From a virus (taxonomy: Duplodnaviria; Heunggongvirae; Uroviricota; Caudoviricetes), in the IMG/VR virus record IMGVR_UViG_3300037471_000830: a stretch of 47,976 nucleotides of DNA; one strand, 5' to 3'. The translations under genes were made by a program, and so were the position numbers. The notes under the pieces are model-generated. The model made no database searches. It was given only the letters and a program-made list of their open reading frames with translations, and was not told the DNA's origin. Position 1 is the stretch's first letter, and each line of letters starts with the position of its first letter. Below are positions 1,666 to 46,334 of the stretch, piece by piece.

Positions 1666-1679
1666 AGTCAGTCATGACA
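1666..1679. promoter_or_regulatory. Dispersed motif copy (AGTCA-GTCA-TGACA)
   Basis: Intergenic, 4 nt downstream of the putative -10 and upstream of the tail tube gene. Confidence 0.75.
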
Positions 1680-1708
1680 TATTTTTTCCCCTTGCAAGGA
1701 GTTTTCTG

Positions 1709-2590
1709 ATGGCAAGCAGCACCAAGAACGTCAAGCTCGGCGTCTGCCAGGTGTACTTCGACGGCCTGGACCTCGGCTACACGAAGGGCGGCGTGGAAGT
1801 GACCGTGAAGACGGACACGCACAAGGTCAACGTGGACCAGTTCGGCAAGACCGCGATCAACGAATACGTCATGGGTCGTGACGTGAACGCCAAGGTGCCG
1901 CTGGCCGAAACGACCCTGGAAAACATGGTCGCCGTGATGCCGGGCGCCACCCTGACGCAGACGGGTGGTGCAGCCGCCACGGGCACCGTGACCCTGGCGA
2001 CGGCCGTTCCGGTGACGGGTGACAAGGTGACGGTCAACGGCGTGGACTTCACGTTCAAGGCCGCCGCCGCCACGCCCTACGAAGTGACCATCGGCGCCAA
2101 CATCAACGCCTGCGCCGCCAACCTGGCTGCCGTGCTGGCCGCGTCCACCGACCCCAAGGTCGCCATCGCGCAGTACAGCAACACCGCCGCCACCGCCGTG
2201 GTGAACGTGAAGTACGGCTCGGACTTCGTGTACGGCAGCGCCGGCAAGCAAGGCGTGGAAGGCAACGCTTTCACCCTGGCCCGCACCTTCACGACTCCGG
2301 CCAACTGCACCCTGTCGGGCGCCAACCTGACGGGCGGCGTTGATCCCAGCAGCGTGTCCGTGTCTGTGTCCACCGGCATCGGCACCGACCTGCTGTCCGT
2401 GGCGAAGGAGCTGCGCTTCCACCCGCAGAACAAGGCTGCCGGCGACAAGACGGACGACTTCGTGATGCCCCTGGCCGCGACGCCTGGCGCGCTGACCTTC
2501 GCCTACAAGCTGGAGGACGAGCGCGTTTACAACGTCGAGTTCTCGGGCTACCCGGACAGCAACGGCAAGCTGTTCACCGTCGGCGTCTAA
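1709..2590 (+). CDS. Major tail (tube) protein with internal inserted domain
   Basis: SD AAGGAG. N-terminus KNVKLGVCQVYFDGLDLGYTKGGVEV is typical of SSU5-like tail tube proteins. Followed by chaperones and tape measure. Confidence 0.85.
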   Translation: MASSTKNVKLGVCQVYFDGLDLGYTKGGVEVTVKTDTHKVNVDQFGKTAINEYVMGRDVNAKVPLAETTLENMVAVMPGATLTQTGGAAATGTVTLATAVPVTGDKVTVNGVDFTFKAAAATPYEVTIGANINACAANLAAVLAASTDPKVAIAQYSNTAATAVVNVKYGSDFVYGSAGKQGVEGNAFTLARTFTTPANCTLSGANLTGGVDPSSVSVSVSTGIGTDLLSVAKELRFHPQNKAAGDKTDDFVMPLAATPGALTFAYKLEDERVYNVEFSGYPDSNGKLFTVGV

Positions 2591-2593
2591 ATC

Positions 2594-2607
2594 AGTCACG
2601 GCTGACG
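2594..2607. promoter_or_regulatory. Dispersed motif copy (AGTCA-CGGC-TGACG) followed by TACAAT
   Basis: 3 nt after the tube gene stop. A -10-like TACAAT sits at 2608-2613. Confidence 0.75.
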
Positions 2608-2635
2608 TACAATAGGCGTCAGCAACTGGCGCAAC

Positions 2636-2663
2636 AAAACGGCCCGCCTTGCGCGGGCCTTTT
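2636..2663 (+). terminator. Rho-independent terminator-like hairpin after the tail tube gene
   Basis: GGCCCGC-CTTGC-GCGGGCC followed by TTTT. Confidence 0.6.
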
Positions 2664-2678
2664 CCCAAGGAACTGCAA

Positions 2679-3038
2679 ATGGCAAAAGTCCTGAATCTCG
2701 ATGAAATCCATGTCGCCGAACCGCGCGTGCTGGTGATGGGCGGCGCTTCCCACCCGATCGACGAACTGTCGGTGGAGAGCTACATCGAGGTTGAATCCAC
2801 GGCCGATCGACTGAAGGGCGAAACCCGTCAGGGCGTCGTGATGAAGGAAACCGTGCGTCTGATCAAGCGCCAGGTTCCGACCGTGGACGAGTCGGCACTG
2901 CTGAAGCTGTCGCTGGAAAAGCTGTTCGCGGTTTCGGAGTTCGTGCGCGGCGTGGACCCGGAAAAGATCATCGCCCGAGCCAAGGGTGCGGTGGTGAACG
3001 GTGACAAGACCGAGGGCGCCGAGCCGGGAAAAGCGTAA
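2679..3038 (+). CDS. Tail assembly chaperone (lambda gpG analogue)
   Basis: SD AAGGA, ATG at 2679. Lies between tube and tape measure genes and ends at a slippery site. Confidence 0.8.
   Translation: MAKVLNLDEIHVAEPRVLVMGGASHPIDELSVESYIEVESTADRLKGETRQGVVMKETVRLIKRQVPTVDESALLKLSLEKLFAVSEFVRGVDPEKIIARAKGAVVNGDKTEGAEPGKA
3026..3032 (+). other. Programmed -1 frameshift slippery heptamer G GGA AAA
   Basis: In-frame XXXYYYZ two codons before the stop. The -1 frame is open from 3026 to 3373. Confidence 0.85.
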
Positions 3039-3377: not shown

Positions 3378-6300
3378 GTGGAAATGCTCGGGCGCGAAAT
3401 CAAGATCGTCATGACCCTGGACGACAAGGACGTGTCGATCAAGACGGTAAAGGTCGGTGAGGAGCTGTCGCAGATGCAGCGCCACATCGAGCGCACCGCC
3501 CAAGCCACCACGCGGCTGGAGGAGCGGTTCACGGGCCTGGGCCAGAAGTTCCGCGACATCACGCTCGCCATTTCCGTGGCGCGCTTCGCTTTCCGCGACA
3601 TCCAGGACATCTTCCTGGCCCTGCCCAACGCCGTCATCAAGTCCAGCTCCGAAATCGAGCGCATGACGACGCTCATGGCTGGCTTGAGCAAGGCCATCAC
3701 GCGCGACGCGAAGTTCGAGGACGCCGCCAAGAGCGTCAAGTTCGTCTTCGACATGGCGCAGCGCACGCCCTTTGCGGTGGGCGCGCTGGCCGACTCCTTC
3801 GTCAAGCTGAAGGTCGGCGGCATCGACCCGACCAACGGCTCCTTGCAGGCCCTGGCAGACTCCGTGGCCCGCTTCGGCGGCAACAGCGAATCCCTCAAGC
3901 GCGCCTCCATCGCCATCCAGCAGATGAGCGGCAAGGGCGTGGTCTCGATGGAAGAACTGCGTCAGCAGTTGGGCGAGGCCATCCCCGATGCGATGGAGTC
4001 CATGGCGATCGGTGCCGGCCTGTCCATGCAGGAGCTTGCCAAGCACGTCGCCAAGGGCGAGGTTGCGGCGAGCAAGGCCATCGCCAACATGCTCACGGTC
4101 ATGCGCATGACCAACGCCGGCGCGTCTGCGGAGATGATGCAGACCTGGAGCGGCATGACCGAGCAGCTTTCGACCAAGTGGGAGCTGTTCAAGAAGGACA
4201 TTGGCGACGACGGCTTCTTCAAGCAGGTCAAGGGTCAGTTGCAGCAGCTTCTCGAAGCCTTCGACTCGGGCGCGTCCCGAACCCTCGCGCAAGACCTTGG
4301 CAGCTCCCTGTCGGGCATCACGACCGGCCTGACCGAAGCCGTGCGGCTCGCGATGCAGTTCTCGGACTACATCAAGCTCGCGGCAGCGGCCTACCTGGGC
4401 ATGAAGGGCGTGTCCTGGGCCAAGGGCTTGACGGACTCGATGCAGCAGCGGTTCATGAACCCGCAGGAGCGCGAGACCCGCGCCATGCAGCTTCGTGACT
4501 CGATGATGGAGGGCCGTTTCGGCGTGGGTCGCTTCATGACCGAGGACCGTCGTGGCGAGGCGTCGGCACTGCTCAAGCAGGCGGAGGAGAACGAGCGTCT
4601 GATCGCGCTGGCTCAAAACCGCGCGACCAAGGAGCTGGACATCGAGCGTGACGCCAAGGTCAAGGAGGTCCAGCTCAATCGCCAGTACGCCCTGGAGAAC
4701 CTGCGCACCAAGAACCAGGAGCTCCAGCAGGCTACCGCTGCCGTGACGAAGGCCGAGGCCGACCGCATCGCCGCCATCAAGTCCGCCCGCACCAACAGCG
4801 CCGCCACGCTGGATCAACTGCGTGACAGCGCCAAGTCCGACGCCGAGGACTGGAAGCGCAAGCTGGCCGTGGCCGTGGAGGGCGAACGCACCATCACGGC
4901 GGCCCGAGTGAAGGAGCGTTCGCAGCTCGCAGCTCGCCTGGCCGCGATCGAAAGCTCTGCACCGGACTCCGGTCGTGGCGCGGCTCAGGCGGCTCGCAGC
5001 GCCGCGATCGTTCGCGCCCAGGTGGTCGAGTTGGATCGTCTGATTGCGTCTGAGCGCCAGGGCGTGCAGGTCACGCGCGAAATCGCCGACGCCTACCAGC
5101 GCAAGGCGACCGTGCTGGCTTCGGCCACGACCCAGCAGGAGGCCGCGCGCCTGGCTGCCGAGCACGCCAACGACATCTCCAACAAGGGCATCGCCCTCGC
5201 GCGCCAGCAGGAGCAGGCTGCCAAGACCGCCGCCAACGCCGCGCGTGACCACGCCCGCGACGTGCTGCGCAACAACGCCGCGATCATCGAGAGCATCGGT
5301 GTAGGCAATCAGGCCGCGCAGGCGCACCAGTCCGAAGTGGCCGCGCTCACCAAGAGCAACGAGGCGCTGCGCGACAAGGCGACGCAGCTCGCCCGCGTCA
5401 CGCCGGCGATGCGCATGCTGTCCGGTGCGATTGCCGGTATGCAGACCATGTTCAACGCCTTCGGCGGCTGGGTCACGGTCGCTGCGGCGGCACTGGCGTG
5501 GCTGGGCACGAAGCTGTGGGAGTTCGTCAACCGCTTCAAGGAAGCCGAGGAAATCCGCAAGCGCATCATGAGCGGCGCGGCACCCTCCAACGACGATCTG
5601 GAGAAGGAAGAAGCGGCGATCAAGGGCCTGGAGGAGCGGCTCAATGCCAAGGTGCGCATGCGCAACTCCGGCGTGGGCAACGACGACGCCAAGCGCAATT
5701 TCTCGCCCGAGAAGCTGGCCCAGCTCGACCAGGAAATCAACGAGCTGACTTCGCAGATCAACAAGGCCCGTCAGAGCGTCATCGAAGGCCGCAAGCTCCA
5801 GATCACGCAGGAGGCCAACGACACCATCGGCCAGCTCACCCGCGAGGGCGAGCGCGAAGTGGCGCAGATTCGCGCCAACATGAACAAGCGCCTGGCTGCG
5901 ATCAAGGAGGAGAACGAGCGCGCCAACCGCGAAAACCCCAAGGGTCGCGAGAAGAACGACAAGACCGCCTCCACGCAGCAGCGCGAGGCGATGGTCTCTG
6001 CCGCCACCGCCGAAGCCGCGTATTGGGACCAGGCCACCGCCAAGGCCAAGAACGCCTACGACAAGGCGCTCAATGGCGGCAGCCGCCGCGCGCAGCAGAT
6101 CGCGCGCGACACCTACAACGCGATGGCCGACCGCCAGCGCAACGCCCAGGAGCTGCTGAAGTCGGTGCAGGAGACCGGCTCGTGGGACAAGTTCACGGGC
6201 GGCAAGGACAACGGCCGGATGAACTCGCTCAAGCAGGTCAACCCGCTGGAGCGCGCGTTCAACGAGGCCGAAATCGGCTTTCAGAAGCAGCGCCTGCAAC

Positions 6301-8084
6301 TCAACGTGCTCAAGGAGGACGCCAAGTCCCTGGAGGACTACAAGCGGCAGGCGATGACGGACGTGATCGAGAAGATCATGAACGGCGGCTTCGACTACAC
6401 CACCAAGGGCGAGGACAAGAAGTCCGACGTGCAGCACTACGTTGGCGGCATGGAGCAGCGCAAGAAGCTCATGACCGACTTCCTGGCGTTCATGCAGCAG
6501 GGCAAGGGCACTGTCGATCAGTTCATCGCCTCGCGCAAGGAGCTCACCGACCAGGAGCGCAAGTGGATCGAGACCATCATCCTGCGCAACGCCGAGCAGC
6601 GCACCGACGCCGAGACCAGCAAGGCCCTGTCGGCTGCCAACGCCCAGGCTGCGGCTGCCCAGGCGGACCTCACGTCGGCCATGGACGACTACAACGCCGC
6701 TTCCAACCGCCTCACGGGCGTTGACAAGATGGAAGTGCAGTTCGCCCGCCTGGCTGCCAAGCTCAAGCTCACGGCCGAGCAGATGGCGAATCTGAAGAAG
6801 GAGCAGACCGAGGCCCTGCGCGACACCGCGCTGGCCGGCGTGTTCCGCTACGGCCAGGGCGCCTTCGATCTGGAGGAAAAGAACAAGTTCTCCGCCTCCA
6901 AGCTCAACGGCACGCGCCAGGATGAGTACAAGGCCGAGTTCGACTACCGCATGGCCCTGGTGCAGCGGGAGTACGACGCGCAGATGGCTGCGGCCGACAA
7001 GTACGCCAAGGGCTCCGAGAAGTACGAGGAGGCGGTGACGGCGGCCAAGCGTCGCTACGCGGCCGAGCGCACCCAAGTCGAGCTGGAGTACCAGGACAAG
7101 GCCCGCACGCAGCTCGCACGGCTGGCTCAGGAGTGGGGCGACACCACCGAGCAGATCAACCAGTCCACGGGCAATTGGGCCAACAGCACCCTGGACTACA
7201 TCACCGGGGCGCTTTCTGGCGTCAAGGGCAAGTTCCGCGACTTCGCCGCCTCGATCATGCGCGACATCGGCAAGATCGCGCTCAAGGACTTGATCGGCAA
7301 GCAGATCGTCGGCGCGTTTGACGGCCTGGGCTCCAAGCTGCTGAACACCTTCAGCTCCAGAGGCAATGGTAGCAATGCTGCCGCTCAGGGCGCGGCGCAG
7401 GCAGCTACCGCGACTGCTGCGAACGCAGCCGCCGCCGCGATCACCAGCATGGCGTCGGCCACCAACTCCTACACCACCGGCTCGCTGGGCCAGATGATCG
7501 CGCAGGCCGCAACCTGGCTGGGTATCGACGCCGGGAAGATGACCACCGCGCAACTCGCCGAGATTGCGCAGATGTCGCTGACCATGTGGATCGCCACCAC
7601 GCAGATGACGCTGGAGTTCGCGTTCGTGCCGACGCTGGCGGCAACCGTGGTTGCCCTTCAGGCCCTGGCCGCAGCAGCCGCCACCGCCGCAGCGGCGCAG
7701 TCAGGCAGTGCCGCCAGCTCCTTCTTTGCCAACGGCGGCATCATGACCAGCGCCGGCTCGCTGCCGCTGAAGATGTACGCCAACGGCGGCGTCGCCAACA
7801 CGCCCCAGGTCGCGGTCTTTGGTGAGGGCCGAACGCCCGAAGCCTATGTGCCGCTGCCTGACGGCCGCAGCATTCCCGTGACCATGCGCGGCAACATCGA
7901 GAACAGCGGTCAGGGCGGTCAGAACATCTCCATCAGCATCGTCGTGAACAACGACGGCTCTGAGCAGACTGGCGCGAGCGGTGACGATGAGAGCAAGTGG
8001 AAGCAGATGGCTCAGCGCGTCAAGGGCGTGGTGCGCGAGGAGCTCGCAACGCAAAAGCGTCAGGGCGGGATGCTTTGGAAATAA
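3378..8084 (+). CDS. Tape measure protein (1568 aa)
   Basis: N-terminal tape-measure domain (AQRTPFAVGALADSFVKL...MSGKGVVSMEELRQQLGE), long Ala-rich helical body, lambda-type C-terminus FANGG...GEGRTPEAYVPL. Confidence 0.95.
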   Translation: MEMLGREIKIVMTLDDKDVSIKTVKVGEELSQMQRHIERTAQATTRLEERFTGLGQKFRDITLAISVARFAFRDIQDIFLALPNAVIKSSSEIERMTTLMAGLSKAITRDAKFEDAAKSVKFVFDMAQRTPFAVGALADSFVKLKVGGIDPTNGSLQALADSVARFGGNSESLKRASIAIQQMSGKGVVSMEELRQQLGEAIPDAMESMAIGAGLSMQELAKHVAKGEVAASKAIANMLTVMRMTNAGASAEMMQTWSGMTEQLSTKWELFKKDIGDDGFFKQVKGQLQQLLEAFDSGASRTLAQDLGSSLSGITTGLTEAVRLAMQFSDYIKLAAAAYLGMKGVSWAKGLTDSMQQRFMNPQERETRAMQLRDSMMEGRFGVGRFMTEDRRGEASALLKQAEENERLIALAQNRATKELDIERDAKVKEVQLNRQYALENLRTKNQELQQATAAVTKAEADRIAAIKSARTNSAATLDQLRDSAKSDAEDWKRKLAVAVEGERTITAARVKERSQLAARLAAIESSAPDSGRGAAQAARSAAIVRAQVVELDRLIASERQGVQVTREIADAYQRKATVLASATTQQEAARLAAEHANDISNKGIALARQQEQAAKTAANAARDHARDVLRNNAAIIESIGVGNQAAQAHQSEVAALTKSNEALRDKATQLARVTPAMRMLSGAIAGMQTMFNAFGGWVTVAAAALAWLGTKLWEFVNRFKEAEEIRKRIMSGAAPSNDDLEKEEAAIKGLEERLNAKVRMRNSGVGNDDAKRNFSPEKLAQLDQEINELTSQINKARQSVIEGRKLQITQEANDTIGQLTREGEREVAQIRANMNKRLAAIKEENERANRENPKGREKNDKTASTQQREAMVSAATAEAAYWDQATAKAKNAYDKALNGGSRRAQQIARDTYNAMADRQRNAQELLKSVQETGSWDKFTGGKDNGRMNSLKQVNPLERAFNEAEIGFQKQRLQLNVLKEDAKSLEDYKRQAMTDVIEKIMNGGFDYTTKGEDKKSDVQHYVGGMEQRKKLMTDFLAFMQQGKGTVDQFIASRKELTDQERKWIETIILRNAEQRTDAETSKALSAANAQAAAAQADLTSAMDDYNAASNRLTGVDKMEVQFARLAAKLKLTAEQMANLKKEQTEALRDTALAGVFRYGQGAFDLEEKNKFSASKLNGTRQDEYKAEFDYRMALVQREYDAQMAAADKYAKGSEKYEEAVTAAKRRYAAERTQVELEYQDKARTQLARLAQEWGDTTEQINQSTGNWANSTLDYITGALSGVKGKFRDFAASIMRDIGKIALKDLIGKQIVGAFDGLGSKLLNTFSSRGNGSNAAAQGAAQAATATAANAAAAAITSMASATNSYTTGSLGQMIAQAATWLGIDAGKMTTAQLAEIAQMSLTMWIATTQMTLEFAFVPTLAATVVALQALAAAAATAAAAQSGSAASSFFANGGIMTSAGSLPLKMYANGGVANTPQVAVFGEGRTPEAYVPLPDGRSIPVTMRGNIENSGQGGQNISISIVVNNDGSEQTGASGDDESKWKQMAQRVKGVVREELATQKRQGGMLWK

Positions 8085-8103
8085 GTCAGCAGTGAGCTAC
8101 AAT
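8075..8103 (+). promoter_or_regulatory. Promoter TTGGAA-N17-TACAAT with a motif copy (AGTCA-GCAG-TGAGC, 8084-8097) in the spacer
   Basis: Canonical 17-bp spacing. The motif overlaps the tape measure stop codon. Confidence 0.7.
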
Positions 8104-8111
8104 GCGGCGCC

Positions 8112-8450
8112 ATGCCGCTGCCGACTTTTTCCTGGTCCCCCGATTGGGAATCCTCTGAGGATTCCGAGCCGAAAGTCAAAGTCACCAAATTCGGTGACGG
8201 CTACGAGGCGCGCGTCGCGGAAGGCATGAACAACAACCCAGCTTCCTGGAAGCTGGGGTTTTCCCGCGACGCCACCACGATTGCCGCCATTCGTGCCTTT
8301 CTCAAGGCGCGAAATGCTATTGAGGCTTTCAACTGGACCAACCCGTTCAATGAGGCGGGGGTTTACGTCTGTCGCAAATGGAGCGTGGTTCGCAAGACTG
8401 GCGTACTCGTGCTCCAGGCGGAATTCCAGCAAGTGTTTGAGGCTTCGTGA
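8112..8450 (+). CDS. Minor tail protein M-like (distal tail)
   Basis: TFSWSPDW...KVTKFGDGYEARVAEGMNN...FLKARNAIEAFNWTNP, the lambda gpM pattern. Confidence 0.9.
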   Translation: MPLPTFSWSPDWESSEDSEPKVKVTKFGDGYEARVAEGMNNNPASWKLGFSRDATTIAAIRAFLKARNAIEAFNWTNPFNEAGVYVCRKWSVVRKTGVLVLQAEFQQVFEAS

Positions 8451-13400: not shown

Positions 13401-14917
13401 ACTACGAGGTTCGCCTCGGTGCGTCTGGTTCGTCGGCCGGTAGCGCCGCTGACGCAGGTCGCGCGTCGGCCGGATCAACCTCCTGGCCCATCAACATCGC
13501 CAGCAACGGCGCCAAGCGCATCTTCATTCGTCCGGTGGACGCAGCGGGCAATGTCGGCACCTGGGCGCAGTACGACTTCACGGCCACGACCGGCCTGACG
13601 GCAGACACCACGCCGGCTGCCGCGCTGGCGTCCTTCACGGCCACGACCGGCTTCGCCTCGGTGTGGCTGACCTGGACGGAGCCCAACTACACCAACGGCG
13701 GCGGTCACGGCGCGGTTAACGTGTACCGGGCCGACTGGAGTTCCGGCCCCACGCAGCCCGCCTGGTCCAGTGCGGTGCGCGTGGGCACGGTGCAGCGCGG
13801 CACCAACAACTTCATCGACCCCATCGGCGTCAGCAAGAAGGCGGTGTACTGGCTCAAGAACGAGACCATCAACGGCGTTGAGCAGACCAACCCGACCGGC
13901 ACGACGGTTGCGGCCAATGCGGCCGGTGTGCTCGTACAGACCACGACCATCGGCAACACCGACCTCGGGCCGCTGGTGGTGGAGGCGAGCAACCTCGCCA
14001 ACGGCGCGGTCGGAGCTACGCAGCTTGCCGCCCAGGCAATTGATGCGACCAAGTTCGCCAACTCCATTGATCCTGTTGGCGTGGTCAGCGCGCTGCCGAC
14101 TGCCATCTTCACGCGCGCCAGTACCGCAACCTATGTGGACGCCGGCCTGGTCAAGACCGCCGCCGCCAACGAGCCGCGCTGGCAGGGTGGGGTGCTGCTG
14201 CTCGAAGCGGCCAAAACCAACCTGCTGCTGCGCAGCTCAACTTTCAACACTGGCTGGGGTACGTTCGGCACGCTGACGGTGGCGCCCGATGCCACGGTCG
14301 CACCGGACGGCACCCTTACTGCCGACAAGCTCACTTCGGGCTCGGCGGACGCCGGCATTTTCCAGGGGGTGTCTGGACTCACTGCCGGCTCTACTTACAC
14401 CGGCTCCGTGTGGCTGCGCGCGGACACGCCCTGTCAGATCGGCATTTTCATCACCGAGACAACTGGAGGCAGCGGGAACACGCAAGTGGTGGTGAACGTA
14501 ACGACGCAGTGGCAGCGGTTTAGCGTGACTCGCGTGCTGGGCGCCAGCGTGACCGGGGCTTCGTTCCAGATCGGCGGCGCAAGCTCGTTCACTACGGGCG
14601 AGGCGGTGTATGCCTGGGGCGCACAGCTCGAACTTGGCAGTCTCTCCAGTCTCATCCCGACGACTACCGCGCAAGTCACCCGCGCTGCGGACGTGGACGG
14701 CTACAAGACGCCGCGCACGGTACTGCTGACCACGGATGGCAAGCTCTATCGGCTCAACTACGCGACGGCATCCTTCGTGTCCAACATCGAGGCAGGCGAC
14801 CTCAGCGGCCAGATAGGCAACTCGCAGATCGGGCCTGGTGCCGTCAACGATGCCTCGCTGGCGGCCGGCGCCGTCAAGGCCGAGAAGCTTGCCATTCGCA
14901 AACACGTCATTTCGTAG
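10448..14917 (+). CDS. Central tail fibre / host specificity protein J-like (1489 aa)
   Basis: DLIGEGKIGGL...LNDTPL, NPAWVLYDLLTNSRYGLG, FN3 repeats, and a C-terminal carbohydrate-binding-like insert. Confidence 0.92.
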   Translation: MNESPDTLRSKAIMSLVDLIGEGKIGGLVNGCQSVFLNDTPLQNPDGSFNFNSVTVDASCVGTPTQAPLQSMSDIETPSSFGGSAVKVRKDTPKTFTITNADADQVRIVMYVPALMTTNSDNGDVYGSKVQYKFQIASKVNGSYGAYQDINADLTYGGDNSGTSGMEGGYLTAYAPGGALGLSALVVARGPVADYEAGGTTGHITAQAQYWNGSAWVNLGATFDLIPTTLTLRQVNRGLGTSGAFGARVEFPWREAYASKIRFVVAAKVQTTDYSGSPVGDITLECLNIKSIVATPVVTMEGKVKGKYQRQHLLTLPKPASEWTIRINRLTDDDPPVTVQNELYAESYTEITNLKLNYPNSAVFAVSVDSSTLSSIPRRSYLVDGLLISVPSNRVVNADGSVTYSGVWDGTFKANKEVCDNPAWVLYDLLTNSRYGLGQFVTPGLVDKAKLYEIGKYCDGLVSNGVGGWERRFTVNTVINEAKEAYELIVELCAVFRGMAFWNGGMVCFTQDAPRDAGMVYGNANVIDGLFTYSGTARKDRHTVALITWNDPNQNYRQAVEYVEESTLVAKYGIRKLEMNAFGCTSRAMAVRIGRWALYTERDESDVISFKVGLDSALVLPGEVISINDQYRAGKRMAGRVVSATTTSATLDAPVTLSAANASVSMRLPDGTFATRTVTNGAGTFTTLNWSSALAATPLPNAMFIVAEAAGGLQPLMARVIGIGQDEENSSNLVISALEHNPGKFDAIENGLALQVPETSVIDSTAVMAPIEFAATQSTYQAANGVAGIRVTLTWQGNCSSYEVQWRRAGSSDNWNVITTSSLSVDIDGVSADQYEFRITGVSALGRRSVTSTLAYTVVGSGLAPADVTGLAVAVQDAGIRITWNACTSPSFVQTRLRVGASWSAGEPIYGGRETACLWPFQQVGSYTVRAKHEALGSVLSVNEATASVTILAPGSVTPTGVVQTPGIATLSWTGTGKTTQPISYYEVRLGASGSSAGSAADAGRASAGSTSWPINIASNGAKRIFIRPVDAAGNVGTWAQYDFTATTGLTADTTPAAALASFTATTGFASVWLTWTEPNYTNGGGHGAVNVYRADWSSGPTQPAWSSAVRVGTVQRGTNNFIDPIGVSKKAVYWLKNETINGVEQTNPTGTTVAANAAGVLVQTTTIGNTDLGPLVVEASNLANGAVGATQLAAQAIDATKFANSIDPVGVVSALPTAIFTRASTATYVDAGLVKTAAANEPRWQGGVLLLEAAKTNLLLRSSTFNTGWGTFGTLTVAPDATVAPDGTLTADKLTSGSADAGIFQGVSGLTAGSTYTGSVWLRADTPCQIGIFITETTGGSGNTQVVVNVTTQWQRFSVTRVLGASVTGASFQIGGASSFTTGEAVYAWGAQLELGSLSSLIPTTTAQVTRAADVDGYKTPRTVLLTTDGKLYRLNYATASFVSNIEAGDLSGQIGNSQIGPGAVNDASLAAGAVKAEKLAIRKHVIS

Positions 14918-14924: not shown

Positions 14925-14938
14925 AGTCATCAGTGAAT
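14925..14938. promoter_or_regulatory. Dispersed motif copy (AGTCA-TCAG-TGAAT)
   Basis: In the J-fibre intergenic gap, preceded by TAGGATAATC as at 1666. Confidence 0.75.
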
Positions 14939-29578: not shown

Positions 29579-29592
29579 AGTCACGACTGAGT
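29579..29592. promoter_or_regulatory. Dispersed motif copy (AGTCA-CGAC-TGAGT)
   Basis: 2 nt after the phosphoesterase stop, upstream of phoH. Confidence 0.8.
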
Positions 29593-31182: not shown

Positions 31183-31202
31183 AGTCAACACTGAGCTATA
31201 GT
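31183..31202 (+). promoter_or_regulatory. Motif copy (AGTCA-ACAC-TGAGC) directly followed by -10-like TATAGT
   Basis: Heads the hfq-like / helicase / primase unit. An 8-bp hairpin TGCGCTGA-GGTT-TCAGCGCA follows at 31211-31230. Confidence 0.75.
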
Positions 31203-31246
31203 GGTTGTCATGCGCTGAGGTTTCAGCGCACCACCGGAGAGTTTTC

Positions 31247-34207: not shown

Positions 34208-34221
34208 ATTCACAAGTGACT
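34208..34221. promoter_or_regulatory. Dispersed motif copy (ATTCA-CAAG-TGACT)
   Basis: 4 nt after the primase stop. Confidence 0.7.
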
Positions 34222-34284
34222 GCTTCTCCTGGGCGCAGTCACTACAGTCAAGTTGATCGCGCAGCGTTGCGCAAGGAGAGAACC

Positions 34285-34782
34285 ATGAAAGCAGGCATGT
34301 GGAGTGCGCTGCACACCAGCGGCACCAAGTTCTACGAAATCGTAGTCCTGCCGGCCACAGCAGACCCGGATGGCGAAACCCTGGAGATTCGGCGCTGGGG
34401 CAAGGCGGAATACCAGCACAAGAGCGGCGGCCAGATCGAGGTCCACAAATGGCCGAGCTGGGCGCAGGCCGCGACTTCCTACAGCACCTACCTTCGCAAG
34501 AAGTCCAAGGGCGGCTACAGCACGGACGATGCAGTGGAGATGCGGAAGTTCACGGACGACATGCTGTCGCTGCCGGCGATGTCTGCGACCGAGGCGCTCG
34601 TGCGCGCCAAGCCGGTTGCCAGCAAGTACAACACTGCCCACCGCGCCAAGATCACGGACGCGGTTCTCGATGTGGCGGTCGGCGATCTGCCCTCCAAGAT
34701 CGACATCGAGGACGACGGCACGGTCGTGGAAGTCGAGAAGACGCCGGAGCCTGACCGTGGCGAATCCTGGGGAAGTTGGTGA
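34285..34782 (+). CDS. WGR-domain protein ending in WGSW
   Basis: SD AAGGAG. KFYEI...RRWGK...GQ...A...KKSKGGY fits the WGR consensus. Confidence 0.7.
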   Translation: MKAGMWSALHTSGTKFYEIVVLPATADPDGETLEIRRWGKAEYQHKSGGQIEVHKWPSWAQAATSYSTYLRKKSKGGYSTDDAVEMRKFTDDMLSLPAMSATEALVRAKPVASKYNTAHRAKITDAVLDVAVGDLPSKIDIEDDGTVVEVEKTPEPDRGESWGSW

Positions 34783-35261
34783 TGAGCCCGAAGGAAATGA
34801 CGGACCTGATGGGCGAACTGGATCGCCTGCTGGACAGCGAGCCGACCACGCCCAGCGAACGAGCGGCCGCAAAGGCGGTTGTGGGCAGCCTCTTGACGGA
34901 GCCAGAGCCGCGCTACTTTGGCGGCAGTCCGATCAGCGGCGTCATCGACGCCAGCACGCTTGTTGGCGGGCTGACCGCGACAAAGATCGAAGCTGGCGTC
35001 ATCCGGCCTAGCTACGACAGCGCCTACAGCCGTGCCAAGTCCGAGGGCGCCGAAGCCCTCCTGGAAGCCATGTCGCCCGCCGTGCGCCGCCTGGTTCGTC
35101 AGGACGCTGGGTTTCGCCTCGCGTCGGTCCTGCAAGGTCTCCAGCAGCAGAAGCACGCAAAGCTCGTCGGCTGCGCTAAACTTCAGTCAGTGCTGAGTCA
35201 AATCAGCACACAGAAGCAATCAGTCGCCGATCCATACGACGGTGATTTCGGATCGTGGTGA
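34782..35261 (+). CDS. Hypothetical protein ending in FGSW
   Basis: TGATG coupling to the upstream gene. C-terminus DPYDGDFGSW. Confidence 0.7.
   Translation: MSPKEMTDLMGELDRLLDSEPTTPSERAAAKAVVGSLLTEPEPRYFGGSPISGVIDASTLVGGLTATKIEAGVIRPSYDSAYSRAKSEGAEALLEAMSPAVRRLVRQDAGFRLASVLQGLQQQKHAKLVGCAKLQSVLSQISTQKQSVADPYDGDFGSW
35185..35198. promoter_or_regulatory. Intragenic motif copy (AGTCA-GTGC-TGAGT)
   Basis: About 90 nt upstream of the next start codon. Confidence 0.7.
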
Positions 35262-35284: not shown

Positions 35285-35875
35285 ATGGAAGTCATTGCTG
35301 ACTATCCGGCCGCTGCAAGTGCAAGCGGCAAGAACGCCTACTACCTGGGCAACTGCGAGTGCGTCGGGCATCGACCGTCCTACGCCGCGTGCCTCAACAA
35401 GATCGAACTGCGCAAGGCGGGCCGGCTGTCGTCCTCGCTGGCCGAGTGCAGCGCGGCCATCAACCGCCGCGAGTGCCCTGCGCAGCGCCTGCGTGATGAG
35501 GAGCTGTCGGCCGGCAAGGCGATTTACTTCATCGACCGCGCGGTCCTGACCGCTTCCAACGACGAGCGCACGGCTCTGGAGAGCGACCGCATCACGCGCC
35601 TGATGGCTGGTGAGCGTCCCGAGCCGGCGCGTCGTCCGGCTCGCAAGACCACCGAAGCCGCTCCCGCAGCGCCTGCCATGCCCACCTACGCGGATGCGAT
35701 CAACGCCGCGCTCAAGGAGGCCCGCAGCGCACCCACGGCGGCCCCGAAACCCATTCCAAAGCCCGCGCCCGCCCCGGCGTCGGCACCTGTCATGAAGCTC
35801 GCCGTGCTGCCCATGCTGCCTGGCGAGTCGATGGCCGATTACGCGCGCCGCGTGATGGCTGCCCGCGCATCCTGA
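35285..35875 (+). CDS. Hypothetical protein with N-terminal Cys cluster and Pro/Ala-rich tail
   Basis: SD AAGGAG, ATG at 35285. CxC...C...C...C residues. Confidence 0.7.
   Translation: MEVIADYPAAASASGKNAYYLGNCECVGHRPSYAACLNKIELRKAGRLSSSLAECSAAINRRECPAQRLRDEELSAGKAIYFIDRAVLTASNDERTALESDRITRLMAGERPEPARRPARKTTEAAPAAPAMPTYADAINAALKEARSAPTAAPKPIPKPAPAPASAPVMKLAVLPMLPGESMADYARRVMAARAS
35290..35303. promoter_or_regulatory. Perfect motif copy AGTCA-TTGC-TGACT over codons 2-7
   Basis: ATG GAA GTC ATT GCT GAC TAT. Confidence 0.8.
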
Positions 35876-37322: not shown

Positions 37323-37595
37323 ATGAAACCCAGCGCCAAAAACTCGGGCGTGATTTACACCGGGCGAGTGGGTGCCAAGCTCAAGCCGCCCTCTGCAAAA
37401 CCGAAGCAGGGCACCGCCACGAAGGGGCACCCCGTAGAACTCAAGGGCGGGCCGCTGGCGGGTGAATTTGTCACGCTGACGCACGGTTCGCATACCTTGG
37501 ACTTGGCCCCGATGAAAGGTTGGGGCGCAGGGCGTTATGTGGGGCGCGAATGGGTTACGGCCGAGAGTCAGTCACCACTGAAGGAGGCCGCATGA
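37323..37595 (+). CDS. Hypothetical protein
   Basis: Coupled ORF containing ELKGGPLAG. Confidence 0.6.
   Translation: MKPSAKNSGVIYTGRVGAKLKPPSAKPKQGTATKGHPVELKGGPLAGEFVTLTHGSHTLDLAPMKGWGAGRYVGREWVTAESQSPLKEAA
37570..37583. promoter_or_regulatory. Motif copy (AGTCA-CCAC-TGAAG) abutting the SD of the next gene
   Basis: Directly followed by GAGG and the ATG at 37592. Confidence 0.65.
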
Positions 37596-40198: not shown

Positions 40199-41380
40199 AT
40201 GGCAGTCAGTGTTCAAAAGCGTGGCGAGAGCAAGTTTCAGCTCCGCGTCACGGACAAGCTCCTACCAAAACCATTCATCCACACCTTCGAGGATGAGTCC
40301 AGCGCGCGCAACTACGGCGAGCAGCTTCGCACGCTTCTCAAGCGTGGCGTGGTGCCTCGCGAGCTGCTGGAGGGTCCGACTGAGACCAAGGACGACCTTC
40401 TGTTCGATCAGGTCATTCGTGGGTATTTGGCGAATAACGCTATTGCTAGGACGACCGAAGACACCGTGGCGGTGATTCGCACCGAGGTGGCGGGCGTGCG
40501 TCTGTCGCAGATTACCTACGAGTGGGTGGAAGGCTATGTGGCGGGCTTGAAGCAGCGAAAGCACAAGAACCTCACGCCAGGCTCCATTCGCAAGCGCGTC
40601 GGCGTGCTGGCGACGATCATGAACTGGCACATCGCGCGCTCCACGTCCAAAGGCCAAGCGCCCATGGCAAATGTCTTCAAGCTGCTGCCAACTGGCTACA
40701 GCCTCTATAGCCGTACCGACGCGCAGCTTCTACAAGCGCGCGGTCAGAAGCCGAAGCGCGACACCCAACGGGACAAGCGCCTGCATCCAGGCGACGAGGA
40801 AAAAATCCTGAGCGTGTTCGAGAAGGCGAACGGTCAGTTCCAGCATGGCCTTCAGCGCCAGGTGTACTTAGACCCGGCGTTCAGGCTGCTTTACCTGACG
40901 GTCGTGGACACCGGAATGCGGCTGTTAGAGGCATACAGGTTGCGGATCGAGGCCCTGGACTTTGACAAGCGACTGATTCGCGTCGAAGGCTCCAAAGGCT
41001 GGCACGGCAACATCAAGCCACGGACGGTGCCGATGAAGCGACGCATCCATGACGAGCTCAAGGCGTTTTGCGCAGGGAGGACGGAGGGGTTCGTGTTTCC
41101 CTATTGGGATGGAAGCGAGGAGTCAAGGCACAACCTCACAGCAAAGCTGTCCGCGCGCTTCACCAGTCTGTTTCACTACGCTGGACTGCCGGACCTGCGG
41201 GAGCATGATCTGCGGCATGAGGCGACCTGCCGTTGGCTTGAACTTCGCGATCCTCGTGGCGGCTGGCTTTTCAGCGACGTGGAAATTTGCCGCATCATGG
41301 GTTGGACGAATACCAGGATGATGCTGCGATATGCCTCGTTGCGAGGCGAAGACCTGGCCGACAGGCTCAAGCAGATTTGA
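40199..41380 (+). CDS. int: Tyrosine recombinase / integrase
   Basis: TGMRLLE (R), HDLRHE (HxxR), IMGW and MLRY (catalytic Tyr). Confidence 0.95.
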   Translation: MAVSVQKRGESKFQLRVTDKLLPKPFIHTFEDESSARNYGEQLRTLLKRGVVPRELLEGPTETKDDLLFDQVIRGYLANNAIARTTEDTVAVIRTEVAGVRLSQITYEWVEGYVAGLKQRKHKNLTPGSIRKRVGVLATIMNWHIARSTSKGQAPMANVFKLLPTGYSLYSRTDAQLLQARGQKPKRDTQRDKRLHPGDEEKILSVFEKANGQFQHGLQRQVYLDPAFRLLYLTVVDTGMRLLEAYRLRIEALDFDKRLIRVEGSKGWHGNIKPRTVPMKRRIHDELKAFCAGRTEGFVFPYWDGSEESRHNLTAKLSARFTSLFHYAGLPDLREHDLRHEATCRWLELRDPRGGWLFSDVEICRIMGWTNTRMMLRYASLRGEDLADRLKQI

Positions 41381-41687: not shown

Positions 41688-41716
41688 ACTGTATCAGTCA
41701 GCACTGACTATTGCAA
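41688..41716 (-). promoter_or_regulatory. xis promoter TTGCAA-N17-TACAGT with a perfect motif (41696-41709) in the spacer
   Basis: Minus strand reads TTGCAA TAGTCAGTGCTGACTGA TACAGT. Confidence 0.8.
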
Positions 41717-41980: not shown

Positions 41981-42388
41981 TCACAGGCTCTTGAAAAATT
42001 CCATGATCTTCTCTTTATTGTTTTCTGTCACTTTGAAGTCCTCGCCTGGACGAGCCTCTCGTATGACTTCCAGCAATTCATATTGGTTGTTGGAAACTGC
42101 CGGACGGCCGACAAGAGATTTGATGACTGTCCAAGTTTCAGGATCATATTCGCGCATTGCCATGTCGAGCAGGAAAACCGGATCGACTTCCAATGCTTTA
42201 GCCATCTTAGGAATTCGCGCAATTGGCAACTTGGTCTTGCCAGAACGAATCATCGAAAGAATATTAGGCTTAGGAAAGCCGACTTCTTCAGCTATCTGAA
42301 CGGCAGTCTTGTCAACCCAATCTATTTGATTATCAATATATGCAGCTATCGTTTTGGCTTCTGTTGATCTTTGCTTTCGTTCTTTCAT
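41981..42388 (-). CDS. XRE-family HTH regulator, candidate immunity repressor
   Basis: QIAEEVGFPKPNILSMIRSGKTKLPIARIPKMAKALEVDP. AT-rich, divergent from the early genes, next to int/xis. Confidence 0.8.
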   Translation of the reverse strand: MKERKQRSTEAKTIAAYIDNQIDWVDKTAVQIAEEVGFPKPNILSMIRSGKTKLPIARIPKMAKALEVDPVFLLDMAMREYDPETWTVIKSLVGRPAVSNNQYELLEVIREARPGEDFKVTENNKEKIMEFFKSL

Positions 42389-42630
42389 TTGTTTCTCCTG
42401 TTGTCGTGTCGCGCCTCACTTGAGACTAAGAGTTGTGGCGGTACGTCTTCATCGAAGTCCGCGCAGTTGTTCTCGACCAAAGTATAGAGCAGGAACACAC
42501 TTTCTATAGCTAAGTAGTGACGTACAAAAGTGGCGTTACTCGCCAAAAGTTCACTACCTTGATCACTAACAGGTGAACTAGAATCACCACATTGCTGCTT
42601 GTTGCAGCGTCACGCAGTTGGAGAAGTTGA

Positions 42631-42870: not shown

Positions 42871-42928
42871 TTGCTGCGCCTGAGACCTGCTTTTACATTA
42901 ACACTTGTCGATTCAGTCATCACTGAGC
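42871..42928 (+). promoter_or_regulatory. Promoter TTGCTG-N17-TACATT plus motif copy (AGTCA-TCAC-TGAGC, 42915-42928)
   Basis: Upstream of the CobT-like gene; the motif abuts SD GGAGA. Confidence 0.7.
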
Positions 42929-45004: not shown

Positions 45005-45022
45005 CAGGCGACCCGTCAGAAT

Positions 45023-45038
45023 AAGTCACAAGTGACTT
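45023..45038. promoter_or_regulatory. Perfect motif copy AAGTCA-CAAG-TGACTT
   Basis: In the CobT-CobS intergenic region. Confidence 0.85.
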
Positions 45039-45104
45039 GTGCATCCTGACGATCATCGTCACAATTCATTTTGTCGGGGGAGCAATGGTTGCTCCCTCAG
45101 ATTC

Positions 45105-45118
45105 AGTCAGTATTGACA
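45105..45118. promoter_or_regulatory. Motif copy (AGTCA-GTAT-TGACA)
   Basis: Directly upstream of SD AGGAG of the CobS-like gene. Confidence 0.8.
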
Positions 45119-45133
45119 CAGGAGAAAGATTCC

Positions 45134-46318
45134 ATGAGCAAGATCAAGTGCGAAATCTGCGGTGCTGAAGTCCACGCCATCCAGCGTCACCTGGAGACCG
45201 ACCACCCGGACGTGTCGCTTGACGCCTACAAGACTCGCTTCCCGGCCGCTCCGCTGCTGTCCGAGTTGATGAAGGCGAAGCTCGCCGAGCGCAAGGCCCA
45301 AGCCGCCACGCCCACCGCTTCCACCCCCGCCGCCACGCCCACCGTGAACCTGACCGCAACCGCCGAGGGCGCCACCGCGCCGACCGATGTGCTGACCAAG
45401 AAGCCGCTCCACGAGACCTTTGCCCTGGGCGCCGTGAAGGCGGCACTGAGCGCCAAGGGCGGCCCGATTCCGATCACGACCTTCGTGAACCCCTCCAATC
45501 CCGAACTGGTGCCGAAGGTCTCGGACGGCTACGTGTACGACGTGGACGAGCTCAAGAACGTGATCCTCGCGCTGGAGCTCAACATCCCCACCTACGTTTG
45601 GGGCCACAAGGGCGCGGGCAAGACGGAGCTTTTCGAGCAAGTTTGCGCCCGCACCGGACGCGCCCTGTGGCGCAACCAGCACACCGTCAACACCGAGGAG
45701 TCGCACATCGTCGGACAGTGGGTGGTGCGCGCCGGCGAGACCCGCTTCGAGCTTGGCCCCCTGGCGATGTGCATGAAGCATGGCTGGGTCTACATGGCCG
45801 ACGAGTACGACTTCGCGCTGCCGAGCGTGCTGGCCGTGTACCAGGCCGTCCTCGAAGGCAAGCCGCTGGTCATCAAGGAGGCTGATGCCGAGAACCGCAT
45901 CATCCGGCCGCATCCGAACTTCCGCTTCGTCGCCACGGGCAACACCAACGGCGCCGGCGATGAGACTGGCTTGTACCAGGGCACCAGCATCCAAAACAGT
46001 GCGAACTACGACCGCTTCGGCATGGTGATCCACAAGCAGTACATGGCGAAGGCCGCCGAGTCGCTGATCCTTCAGAACCGCGTCGGTCTGGTGAAGGAGG
46101 ACGCCGACAAGCTCGTTGACTTCGCCAACAAGGTGCGCGAGGCATACGGCGCCTCCAAGATCAGCGACACGATCTCTCCGCGTACCCTGATCTACGCGGC
46201 GCAGATCGGCGTCAAGCGCGGCTCCTTCCGCCAGGGTCTCACGCTCTCCTTCATCAACAAGCTGTCCACGGTGGATCGCGAAGTGGTGGACGGCGTGGCT
46301 TCGCGCGTCTTCGGATAA
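45134..46318 (+). CDS. CobS-like MoxR-family AAA+ ATPase with N-terminal C2H2 Zn finger
   Basis: CEICG...HLETDH, Walker A GHKGAGKT, Walker B MADEYD, HPNFRFVATGN, DRF. Confidence 0.88.
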   Translation: MSKIKCEICGAEVHAIQRHLETDHPDVSLDAYKTRFPAAPLLSELMKAKLAERKAQAATPTASTPAATPTVNLTATAEGATAPTDVLTKKPLHETFALGAVKAALSAKGGPIPITTFVNPSNPELVPKVSDGYVYDVDELKNVILALELNIPTYVWGHKGAGKTELFEQVCARTGRALWRNQHTVNTEESHIVGQWVVRAGETRFELGPLAMCMKHGWVYMADEYDFALPSVLAVYQAVLEGKPLVIKEADAENRIIRPHPNFRFVATGNTNGAGDETGLYQGTSIQNSANYDRFGMVIHKQYMAKAAESLILQNRVGLVKEDADKLVDFANKVREAYGASKISDTISPRTLIYAAQIGVKRGSFRQGLTLSFINKLSTVDREVVDGVASRVFG

Positions 46319-46320
46319 TC

Positions 46321-46334
46321 AGTCAGGGGTGAGG
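46321..46334. promoter_or_regulatory. Motif copy (AGTCA-GGGG-TGAGG) whose right half contains the SD
   Basis: 2 nt after the CobS stop; ATG at 46341. Confidence 0.75.

Follow-up and report, generated by a model that had tools for sequence, protein, structure and literature searches.

The window analysed here, the whole 47,976-nucleotide stretch of a tailed phage, runs from tail and endolysin-like genes through PhoH-like, DnaB-like and primase genes to an integrase gene, a gene for a small XRE protein and a CobT-CobS-sigma block (Table 1). A short inverted repeat, here called the box, recurs throughout: the exact word AGTCA-N4-TGA is present at 19 sites. These give 24 strand hits, whereas 100 dinucleotide shuffles yielded 1.13 ± 1.06 and never more than 4; five of the sites are perfect AGTCA-N4-TGACT palindromes where 0.03 are expected. 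The original prediction had listed these 19 positions and five palindromes, and all hold up; 18 are on the plus strand, which is the gene strand, and the copy at 34208, described as an ATTCA variant, is exact on the minus strand only. The accompanying hand estimate of about 0.3 chance copies per strand was of the right order of magnitude. The weaker copies also proposed were a mixed set: those at 15319 and 21603 have one mismatch and keep the conserved ATC flank, whereas that at 32799 reads TGG where TGA is expected and that at 42509 has a poor left half and was not counted. One-mismatch copies number 36 in the window vs 17.7 ± 5.2 in shuffles, an excess that is mostly the second strand of exact sites.

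The consensus in the window, nAnAAT[C/A]-AGTCA-nn[A/G]n-TGA-[C/G]T, is longer than the word first noted; T stands at position -2 in 18 of 19 sites, and the conserved word spans 20 bp, with no conserved position beyond -7 or +16. By our own gene calls only 5.5% of the window is non-coding, and 13 of the 19 boxes lie entirely within that share; another four (8084, 22613, 34208 and 37570) meet the end or the start of a gene, leaving two that are truly gene-internal (32878 and 35290). Genes preceded by a box include those for PhoH, helicase/primase, CobT, CobS and the sigma-like protein. A literature search found no published description of the AGTCA-N4-TGACT box, in keeping with the original prediction, which knew of none.

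Table 1. Boxes and associated features along the window.
Feature	Position	Strand	Context
Box	1666-1679	+	Class 1, TATTTT from +14; upstream of major tail/Ig-domain gene (1709)
Box	2594-2607	+	Class 1, TACAAT 2608-2613; 4 nt past stop at 2590
Box	8084-8097	+	Class 1, TACAAT 8098-8103; first A is last base of tape-measure stop codon; minor tail gene next, start 8112
Box	14925-14938	+	J-like tail gene stop 14917, then box, then 2017-aa tail gene 14966; GATAAT immediately upstream, no downstream hexamer
Box	22613-22626	+	TGA of box is stop codon of endolysin-like ORF; then TATTAT overlapping ATG 22631
Box, perfect palindrome	27205-27218	+	Class 2-like, TAAAGT at +36; next gene 27273
Box, perfect palindrome	27662-27675	+	Class 1, T of TGACT is base 1 of TAAAAT; ATG 27687
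Box	29579-29592	+	Metallophosphoesterase stop 29576, box, PhoH-like gene 29620
Box	31183-31196	+	Class 1, TATAGT 31197-31202; head of small ORF/DnaB helicase/primase block
Box, exact copy	32878-32891	+	Inside DnaB-like gene (31655-33019); doubtful function
Box, exact copy	34208-34221	-	Plus strand reads ATTCA...TGACT; primase stop 34203, WGR-domain gene 34216
Box	35185-35198	+	5 nt past TAA; 97 nt ahead of gene starting 35282
Box, perfect palindrome	35290-35303	+	Codons 3-7 of gene starting 35282
Box	37570-37583	+	Abuts GGAGG ribosome site of gene starting 37598
Box, perfect palindrome	41696-41709	+	Integrase (40199-41380) on one side, 3' end of XRE gene on the other
One-mismatch copy (TGTCA)	21603-21616	+	ATC flank conserved; right half TGAGG is ribosome site for ATG 21624
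XRE/434-CI-like HTH protein, 135 aa	41981-42388	-	Best candidate reader of box
One-mismatch copy (AGTCT)	42416-42429	-	28 nt upstream of XRE start codon; possibly a weak autoregulatory site of XRE
Sigma70-type promoter, CobT-CobS-sigma early block	42871-42899	+	TTGCTG, 17-nt spacer, TACATT; orthologous promoters in 12 relatives
Box	42915-42928	+	Class 3, ~+9 to +22 behind the 42871-42899 promoter; CobT start 26 nt on
Box, perfect palindrome	45024-45037	+	Class 2, centre ~-41.5; T of TGACT is base 1 of -35 TTGTGC; CACAAT 17 nt further (45060-45065)
Box	45105-45118	+	Leader position, 29 nt ahead of CobS-like gene (45134)
Box	46321-46334	+	CobS stop 46318, sigma-like gene 46347; right half TGAGG doubles as ribosome site
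Phage sigma-like protein, sigma2 + sigma4 fold	46347-46988	+	Rejected as reader of box

Phage specificity and conservation

In the 8-Mb Paraburkholderia assembly G010, 35 of 39 perfect 14-mers fall within one 101-kb prophage (C3:309-411 kb), a relative of the window phage whose CobS is 69% identical, and the host part of ~7.9 Mb holds only four, not above chance; because the perfect copies are confined in this way the box is phage-specific rather than host-wide, and the chance level in the host part argues against a host regulon. A conserved host protein as the reader would account for an identical box across hosts of 40-65% GC, but it must face both that host count and the fact that the box differs between closely related phages (AGTCA, AGTAA and TAAGT types), and we consider it the most improbable of the readings weighed here.

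The box was present in 19 of the first 19 relatives and is retained in 40 dereplicated lineages, and in more than 40 overall, of ~105-114-kb siphophages whose hosts span that same GC range. Five complete genomes of 105-114 kb give 52-80 strand hits each vs 8-24 for the reversed control, and relatives carry about 45 copies per genome; the gap between XRE and CobT is their densest cluster, with up to five boxes in 550 bp (L002). The G010 prophage has 46 sites, nearly all sense-oriented, and the box centre is directional, reading AAAC in the sense of the genes in about 34 of the 46 (family-wide 55 vs 32, p = 0.018). Equal frequency in host DNA or in coding regions, or a lack of conservation in relatives, had been named beforehand as observations that would count against a network; the box is instead rare in G010 host DNA, concentrated in non-coding sequence and kept across lineages, and the proposed cis-regulatory network ahead of structural, lysis and replication genes is genuine and phage-specific. 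The label of phage-plasmid is doubtful, since an integrase is encoded in the window and a close relative is found inserted in a chromosome contig of Paraburkholderia. To our knowledge, no bench work has been done on this family of ~110-kb temperate siphophages, whose hosts are Beta- and other Proteobacteria.

Register of the box with promoters

Across the family the box takes four positions on sigma70-type promoters: joined to TATAAT where there is no -35, joined to a -35, overlapping the start site, or lying just downstream of that site. TAnnnT hexamers concentrate only at +13/+14/+15 (52 of 122 sites) and +36 (24 of 122) from the box; in a larger set the counts at +13, +14, +15 and +36 are 53, 46, 24 and 58, where about 2.4 per position are expected, and the T of the box's own TGACT doubles as the opening base of TATAAT or of the -35 TTGnnn. 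Class-1 sites, with a -10, no -35 and the inverted repeat just upstream, make up 38 of the 122, and 26 of these 38 match TA[TCA]A[AT]T. The CobT promoter in 12 relatives is a full TTGnnn-17-TAnnnT with the box just downstream. Nearly all perfect palindromes fall in one of the four hexamer registers; 158 of 255 imperfect sites fall in none. The dyad symmetry of the box and the many copies in exact -10/-35 register make it more probably an operator on promoters than an elongation block, and the analogy with L5 stoperators drawn in the original prediction is a poor fit. Class-1 promoters, lacking a -35, would be expected to be weak alone, which points to activation rather than repression.

The sites could also be read at the RNA level, as an AGUCA-NNNN-UGACU hairpin of 5 bp with a tetraloop, recognised by a phage RNA-binding protein acting as antiterminator, processing factor or translational regulator. 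Sites run in the direction of the genes, many follow a stop codon and precede the next ribosome site, some of them sharing bases with it, and the loop is directional (AAAC) in G010, all of which such a reading would explain; but position 12 is G in 7 of the 19 window sites, which abolishes pairing with G1 and shortens the stem to 3 bp, compensatory changes are absent, so that the halves are fixed as sequence and not as pairs, and the sharing of bases with TATAAT and the -35 is a DNA-level constraint, a class-1 box being untranscribed from its own promoter. We judge an RNA element improbable.

The XRE protein as candidate reader

In a fold search the N-terminal 60 residues of XRE superpose on 434 Cro/repressor, P22 c2, SinR and C.AhdI (2cro, 2or1, 3jxb, 1y7y, 3zkc; rmsd 1.4-1.9 A over 60-63 residues, TM by target 0.72-0.82, Foldseek E about 0.02); the Pfam HTH_3 match (E = 0.0056) is below threshold, and no LexA-like peptidase domain was detected in the protein. 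A homodimer model scores 0.34, against 0.00 for the best of three controls, passing a mark that is reached by 21 of 30 proteins solved as one-chain pairs and by 0 of 23 with single-chain structures; at least 85% of contacts recur between runs, pLDDT is at least 78, and the modelled interface (residues 85-135) leaves the HTH free. We take the model as supporting, rather than establishing, binding between the two chains; since HTH_3 dimers have already been solved, the pass may reflect likeness to them.

The recognition helix of XRE tracks the box. It matches [PAGS][NT][IVML][ILV][STV]M in 40 of 40 AGTCA lineages with a full XRE, reaching distant ones too (CobS 44-47% identical), and it is altered in every full-length XRE from variant-box lineages (four lineages): ..TL.. 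in L125 with AGTAA-N4-TTACT, ..SF.. in the L107 group and PNYFSM in L144, both with AGTAA, and SQVRLTR in Oxalobacter L030, which has TAAGT-AAGA-ACTTA at the orthologous CobT and CobS promoters. When lineages are compared as phylogenetically independent pairs, 4-6 pairs are available and the link between helix and box falls short of significance (median p = 0.5): the helix agrees with the box in 2.5 pairs and runs contrary to it in 0.2. Six lineages have the canonical helix and 0-1 strict boxes in 11-21 kb. No other DNA-binding protein was found among the ~55 window proteins scanned. With its 434/CI-type fold, predicted dimer, place beside the densest cluster and box-tracking helix, XRE stands as the best candidate, as the original prediction proposed.

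The same prediction had included the sigma-like protein among possible regulators, and one could suppose that RNA polymerase with this protein reads the box directly as a promoter. It is a true sigma (sigma2 + sigma4; Sigma70_r2 match E = 4e-8) whose model matches sigma chains of initiation complexes along its whole length, its gene is syntenic after CobS in all box-bearing relatives, and it is absent from nickie and SSU5, both without the AGTCA box. Its C-terminal domain, 22-35% identical overall with indels among genomes with an identical box, is nevertheless far too variable to read an invariant word, which makes it a poor candidate, and we rejected it. A sigma2-sigma4 protein moreover reads two elements ~17 bp apart and not a 14-bp dyad, a protein of the same kind is encoded by G006, which has an AGTAA box, and no promoter geometry fits boxes downstream of start sites or against ribosome sites. 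This reading is very improbable.

Our preferred reading, which we hold with about even confidence, is that the box is an operator bound by a phage dimeric HTH regulator, most likely XRE, that silences nearly all transcription units. The bound element would be T[A/C]-AGTCA-nnRn-TGACT (14-16 bp), built into or set beside almost every transcription unit, and an XRE dimer, encoded divergently from the putative early CobT-CobS-sigma operon, would set a recognition helix (KPNILSM) against each of the AGTCA/TGACT half-sites. At ~-41.5, -18.5, the start site or +9 to +22 the box would lie within the RNA polymerase footprint, so that occupation of any of these would shut the promoter; boxes between a stop codon and the next ribosome site may block read-through. 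In the prophage, a single protein could in this way silence about 45 promoters per genome.

A plain repressor fits poorly in two respects. The integrase-XRE cassette between ligase and CobT is absent from four lineages (the L006 group, L013, L093 and L126), with no XRE homologue in 29-73 kb of contig (28-68% complete, so that an XRE may lie elsewhere in these genomes), and these keep AGTCA boxes at normal density in all registers; a symmetric dimer, in turn, leaves the directional box centre unexplained. Of the original claim that one protein controls nearly every operon, the network across operons stands, and the four cassette-less lineages tell in part against the single controller.

Comparison with known phage systems

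The regulatory layout resembles that of P1 C1, in which one repressor serves many operators across a ~100-kb temperate phage, over sigma70-type promoters at varying registers; the P1 record places Op sites over the -35 of PpmgT, Plpa, Pc1 and P1coi, and dispersed operator-like boxes over the sigma70 promoters of separate operons are a P1-type feature seen here too. P1 operators, by contrast, are 17-bp and asymmetric and C1 is a 283-aa protein, with no homologue matched by tblastn at E <= 1 in the window, the relatives' loci or the 99-kb G006; and P1 late genes are targets of Lpa and not of C1, whereas here the same box, at ~45 copies per genome, precedes early, replication, tail and lysis genes alike.

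P1 has 11 late promoters (Lpa, '-22 region'; PMC10695390). Like our class-1 sites, these combine a -10 hexamer with a short inverted repeat a few bases before it and lack a -35, and the P1 (NC_005856) boxes AAGTTACTT and ATGTGACTT have the outer AAGT/ACTT in common with AAGTCA...TGACTT here. The box described here differs in being 14 bp (5-4-5) with its centre at ~-18.5 and one base common to the -10, in being found at -41.5 as well as across and beyond the start site, and in not being confined to late (morphogenesis, lysis) operons.

Because boxes outlast the cassette and their centre is directional, a second, core reader resembling the P1 Lpa activator is a serious rival, though one that we hold less likely than the XRE reading. 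The box would then be a positive promoter element through which a core phage factor recruits host RNA polymerase to -35-less box + TATAAT promoters, the same factor shutting off those early promoters whose box covers or follows the start site, and XRE either mimicking this factor to silence the prophage or having no relation to the box. About one third of family sites consist of a box fused to TATAAT, their -10 being close to consensus and a -35 lacking, class-1 promoters in G006 (AGTAA box) keep TTGAC-TATAAT though the palindromic right half is TTACT, and the shared anatomy and outer half-site of the P1 late promoters point the same way. Against this, no Lpa homologue is matched by tblastn (E <= 1) in the window, ~140 relatives' loci or G006, the scan of window proteins gave no further DNA-binding candidate, one or two registers would be expected where four are seen, boxes stand ahead of early and replication genes besides late ones, and the co-variation of XRE helix and box goes unexplained unless XRE binds the box too. 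A single 14-bp word might also serve as both on and off switch of a whole 100-kb phage, with a core factor non-homologous to P1 Lpa using the box in place of a -35 to fire ~45 promoters and XRE having evolved to read the same word and silence them all. This reading, rather unlikely in our estimate, would explain both the survival of boxes after repressor loss and the tracking of box by helix.

Cluster A stoperators of L5/Bxb1 are 13-bp, without dyad symmetry, monomer-bound and mostly not promoter-associated (PMC6550527). They share with the present box a number of 20-30 or more sites per genome, orientation with transcription, placement in short intergenic gaps and co-variation of site sequence with the repressor between lineages (PMC6550527); here, in contrast, the box is a 5-4-5 dyad with a predicted dimer as candidate reader, many copies are in exact promoter register, and conservation across relatives is far higher. 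The lambdoid CI/Cro systems of 434 and P22 c2 offer a parallel for the candidate reader, with a five-helix HTH_3 domain and a (predicted) C-terminal dimerisation region, a 14-bp dyad as the presumed operator, and a gene that points away from the early lytic operon, the intervening gap holding such sites. They differ in that sites here are genome-wide (19 over 45 kb of window) rather than confined to the immunity region, and in the four lineages that keep boxes without the repressor.

Implications

If boxes act positively too, they would add a second, independent case to the poorly understood class of -35-less promoters known from P1 Lpa, with natural 'repressor-less' variants available for comparison; and if the word is both an on and an off switch, a change from AGTCA to AGTAA or TAAGT would force both readers to follow. 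If one small repressor reads all sites, immunity groups (AGTCA, AGTAA and TAAGT types) would become predictable from sequence, promoters and operon boundaries could be found in uncultured phages, and orthogonal switches could be built. With ~45 near-identical sites per genome, the boxes mark out a phage regulon that is both very large and very clean, carried by a widespread family of ~110-kb temperate siphophages.

Abundance, conservation and phage specificity of the box

The dispersed dyad word AGTCA-N4-TGA(CT), called the box here (14 bp in a 5-4-5 layout), is a real, family-wide promoter-operator box. Counting both strands, the window holds 24 matches to AGTCA-N4-TGA, spread over 19 places, compared with 1.13 ± 1.06 expected from dinucleotide shuffles, and perfect AGTCA-N4-TGACT palindromes stand at 5 places compared with 0.03 expected; this exact pattern count confirms every box coordinate of the original prediction. 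When the sites are aligned, the conserved word extends to nAnAAT[C/A]-AGTCA-nn[A/G]n-TGA-[C/G]T, and 18 of the 19 window sites have T at -2. Our gene calls leave 5.5% of the window non-coding; 13 of the 19 boxes fall wholly in this fraction, and 4 more touch a gene boundary. No published description of the box was found in the literature on SSU5-type phages, phage-plasmids, or phage sigma, promoter and repressor systems, in keeping with the original prediction, whose author knew of none.

The same box is present in 19 of 19 IMG/VR relatives (CobS 61-70% identical, GC 51-61%), and five complete genomes of 105-114 kb carry 52-80 strand hits each versus 8-24 for a reversed control pattern. The CobT-like protein ties the window to Rhizobium phage RHEph10, Pseudomonas phage nickie and the SSU5 group; RHEph10 has about 15 box copies, extended to AGTCAGTCAATATTGACT, and nickie and SSU5 are without the box and have other palindromes at their promoters instead. 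At nickie (L021) promoters at 3560-3632, 8079-8170 and 13402-13475, GC-rich inverted repeats GCGCGCT...AGCGCGC surround a TACAAT hexamer. Megablast with both halves of the window found no near match among phage and plasmid records, and the stretch is present in soil and rhizosphere DNA sequencing runs only, with no RNA run listed.

In an 8-Mb Paraburkholderia assembly (G010), 35 of the 39 perfect 14-mers lie inside C3:309-411 kb, an integrated relative, and the remaining 7.9 Mb holds 4, roughly the chance level. The original prediction was to be given up if the motif were equally frequent in host DNA or in coding regions, or not conserved in relatives; since the box is rare in host DNA, enriched in non-coding DNA and conserved, it withstands all three. 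The Paraburkholderia relative (G010:C3:309000-412300; 69% identical by CobS) sits inside a 450-kb chromosome contig, and because the window itself encodes a tyrosine integrase, its branch behaves as an integrating prophage of Burkholderiales and is not obviously a phage-plasmid. Simple box counts are inflated by a copy, AGTCACTG[AG]TGAT, that recurs inside the CobS coding sequence of several relatives (L009:10722, L013:10698, L016:10737 and L030:10680) and is a conserved, non-regulatory codon run; the 5 AGTCA copies that exact-pattern counting returns for the Oxalobacter element L030 were discounted, all being coding and one lying in this run.

Window features, box sites and cassette-loss loci
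Feature	Position	Strand or remark
Siphophage tail module		
Endolysin-like gene		
PhoH		
DnaB helicase, primase, ligase		
DUF4082 protein	26384-27193	E = 7e-36; after the tail/lysis block
WGR-domain protein	34216-34782	after primase, as in RHEph10 gp034
Integrase (tyrosine)	40199-41380	
XRE gene	41981-42388	-; divergent
Early block: CobT-like, CobS-like, sigma-like genes		
Sigma-like protein	46347-46988	
Class 1 boxes	1666, 2594, 8084, 22613, 27662, 31183	
Class 2 boxes	45024; probably 27205	
Class 3 box	42915	behind TTGCTG-17-TACATT at 42871-42899
Cassette loss, L006	L006:7123-7794	
Cassette loss, L013	L013:6880-7753	
Cassette loss, L093	L093:5836-7730	
Cassette loss, L126	L126:6177-7855	

Position of the box relative to promoters

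At 122 unique family sites, TAnnnT hexamers cluster at +13/+14/+15 (52 sites) and +36 (24 sites), counted from the first A of the box, and are nearly absent elsewhere. A larger set, 614 strand contexts, repeats these peaks, with 53, 46, 24 and 58 hits at +13, +14, +15 and +36, versus about 2.4 expected per position. Class 1 boxes run into a near-consensus TATAAT, whose first T is either the final T of TGACT or the base after it; no -35 is visible, and the box is centred at about -18.5. In class 2, the final T of TGACT instead opens a -35 TTGnnn, and TAnnAT comes after a 17-bp spacer, which puts the centre at -41.5. Class 3 boxes come after a complete TTGnnn-17-TAnnnT promoter, a few bases past its start site, as at the CobT promoter in 12 relatives, and in class 4 the hexamer stops two or three bases short of the box, which thus lies over the start site (e.g. 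L006:16449). The upstream nAnAAT was rejected as a general -10, being strong in the window and weak family-wide, and is treated as a flank preference plus the minority class 4, which may include the GATAAT flanks seen at several window sites. Sites outside the four classes lie in the gap from a stop codon to the following ribosome site, and some share bases with the latter (46321, 37570, 21603). The downstream half-site is the degenerate one and the one overlapping other signals, and the apparent strand bias of the box is largely due to this promoter and ribosome-site layout.

Other elements accompany these promoters. The CobT and CobS promoter spacers contain a conserved CCTGA (window 45012-45056 and 42871-42899; same places in relatives), and an outer inverted repeat, CGTCAG ... 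CTGACG, that encloses box and -35 at the CobS promoter is a possible second operator or terminator-like hairpin. Outside the window's extent, the relative L002 has a class-1 promoter (17694-17800), lying about 6.5-8 kb downstream of CobS, that precedes a strongly conserved leader, GCTGAAACGA..., which contains a hairpin; the arrangement recurs at orthologous sites in 13 other relatives. The leader has no Rfam match and is a possible small RNA or regulatory 5' UTR.

Candidate readers of the box

Window genes lie nearly all on the + strand, and the gene for XRE, a 135-aa 434/CI-like helix-turn-helix protein, is always divergent from the CobT promoter; in relatives the gap between the two holds the densest box cluster. 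The N-terminal 60 residues of XRE superpose on 434 Cro/repressor, P22 c2, SinR and C.AhdI at 1.4-1.9 Å. The homodimer model scores 0.34 (best of 3 controls, 0.00), with an interface in residues 85-135, contacts agreeing to at least 85% between runs and pLDDT of at least 78; the mark set for this score was attained by 21 of 30 proteins whose solved structures are pairs of one chain, and by 0 of 23 whose solved structures are single chains. The model supports homodimerisation, short of demonstrating it, and may reflect likeness to similar dimers already solved.

The recognition helix pattern [PAGS][NT][IVML][ILV][STV]M is kept across 40 dereplicated AGTCA lineages (GC 40-65%, CobS down to 44% identity) and altered in lineages that combine a full-length XRE homologue with a different box: TL with AGTAA-N4-TTACT in L125, SF with AGTAA in the L107 group, YFSM with AGTAA in L144, and SQVRLTR in L030, where TAAGT-AAGA-ACTTA stands at the orthologous CobT and CobS promoters. 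The type of box has switched about six times on the CobS tree, and since an independent-pairs test of box against helix has only 4-6 pairs and is not significant, the co-variation is suggestive. The 5-4-5 geometry with other half-sites (AGTAA...TTACT; TAAGT...ACTTA) recurs at orthologous promoters in G006 (L023-L027), L107, L124, L125, L144 and L030, and L148 has AGTC...GACT with the spacing 2 bp closer.

The sigma-like protein is a genuine sigma: region 2 is present, and its model aligns along whole sigma chains of initiation complexes. It is compact (sigma2-linker-sigma4, with a disordered 30-residue linker) and always the third gene of a CobT-CobS-sigma block. As a reader it was rejected, since sigma2-sigma4 takes two elements about 17 bp apart and the box is a 14-bp dyad, its C-terminal domain varies strongly between genomes that share an identical box, and it is also present in G006, where the box differs; XRE fits the role much better. 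An RNA hairpin was rejected on pairing and on the promoter registers, and RNA element, sigma promoter and host factor are improbable even when taken together. Pfam found no DNA-binding domain in ten further uncharacterised window proteins, and an ORF (31205-31651) previously called Hfq-like has only a sub-threshold Pfam Hfq match (E = 0.033; 14 bits, cut-off 27).

Boxes in lineages without the XRE cassette

The integrase-XRE cassette between ligase and CobT has been lost in four lineages, the L006 group, L013, L093 and L126; the loss in L093 is recent, with an integrase remnant and a guanylate-kinase-like gene kept, and the other three are old. No XRE homologue was found in the 29-73 kb of (incomplete) contig of these lineages, and their boxes occur at normal density in all registers. 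The box centre, moreover, is directional, reading AAAC in the sense of the genes at about 34 of the 46 sites in the Paraburkholderia prophage, with a family-wide split of 55 versus 32 (p = 0.018). The persistence of boxes in cassette-less lineages, the -35-less class-1 promoters and the directional centre argue, short of proof since the contigs are incomplete, that the box is needed by something besides XRE as well. G006 has AGTAA boxes and no XRE homologue in 99 kb; its class-1 promoters retain TTGAC-TATAAT although the palindromic right half there is TTACT. That the box serves in the first place as a positive promoter element for some core factor other than XRE is a real but minority possibility. 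The original prediction, that one protein, best XRE, controls nearly every operon, is thus backed as to the protein by XRE fold, dimer model, gene position and helix-box co-variation, and opposed as to its sole rule by the boxes of the four cassette-less lineages; we give XRE as box reader and global repressor about an even chance.

Relation to known systems and implications

Among known systems, dispersed operators on promoters are best matched in function by the P1 C1 operators, which unlike the box are asymmetric; no P1 C1 homologue was found. P1 late promoters share the class-1 anatomy, even to the outer AAGT/ACTT of the box, but the box is not limited to late genes, and no P1 Lpa homologue was found. 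L5 stoperators resemble the box in number, dispersion and orientation, and unlike it are non-dyad; they are monomer-bound and lie mostly away from promoters. Within the family, lineages without the lysogeny cassette may be naturally virulent derivatives, and the variant half-sites of sister lineages might represent a natural series of immunity or specificity types.
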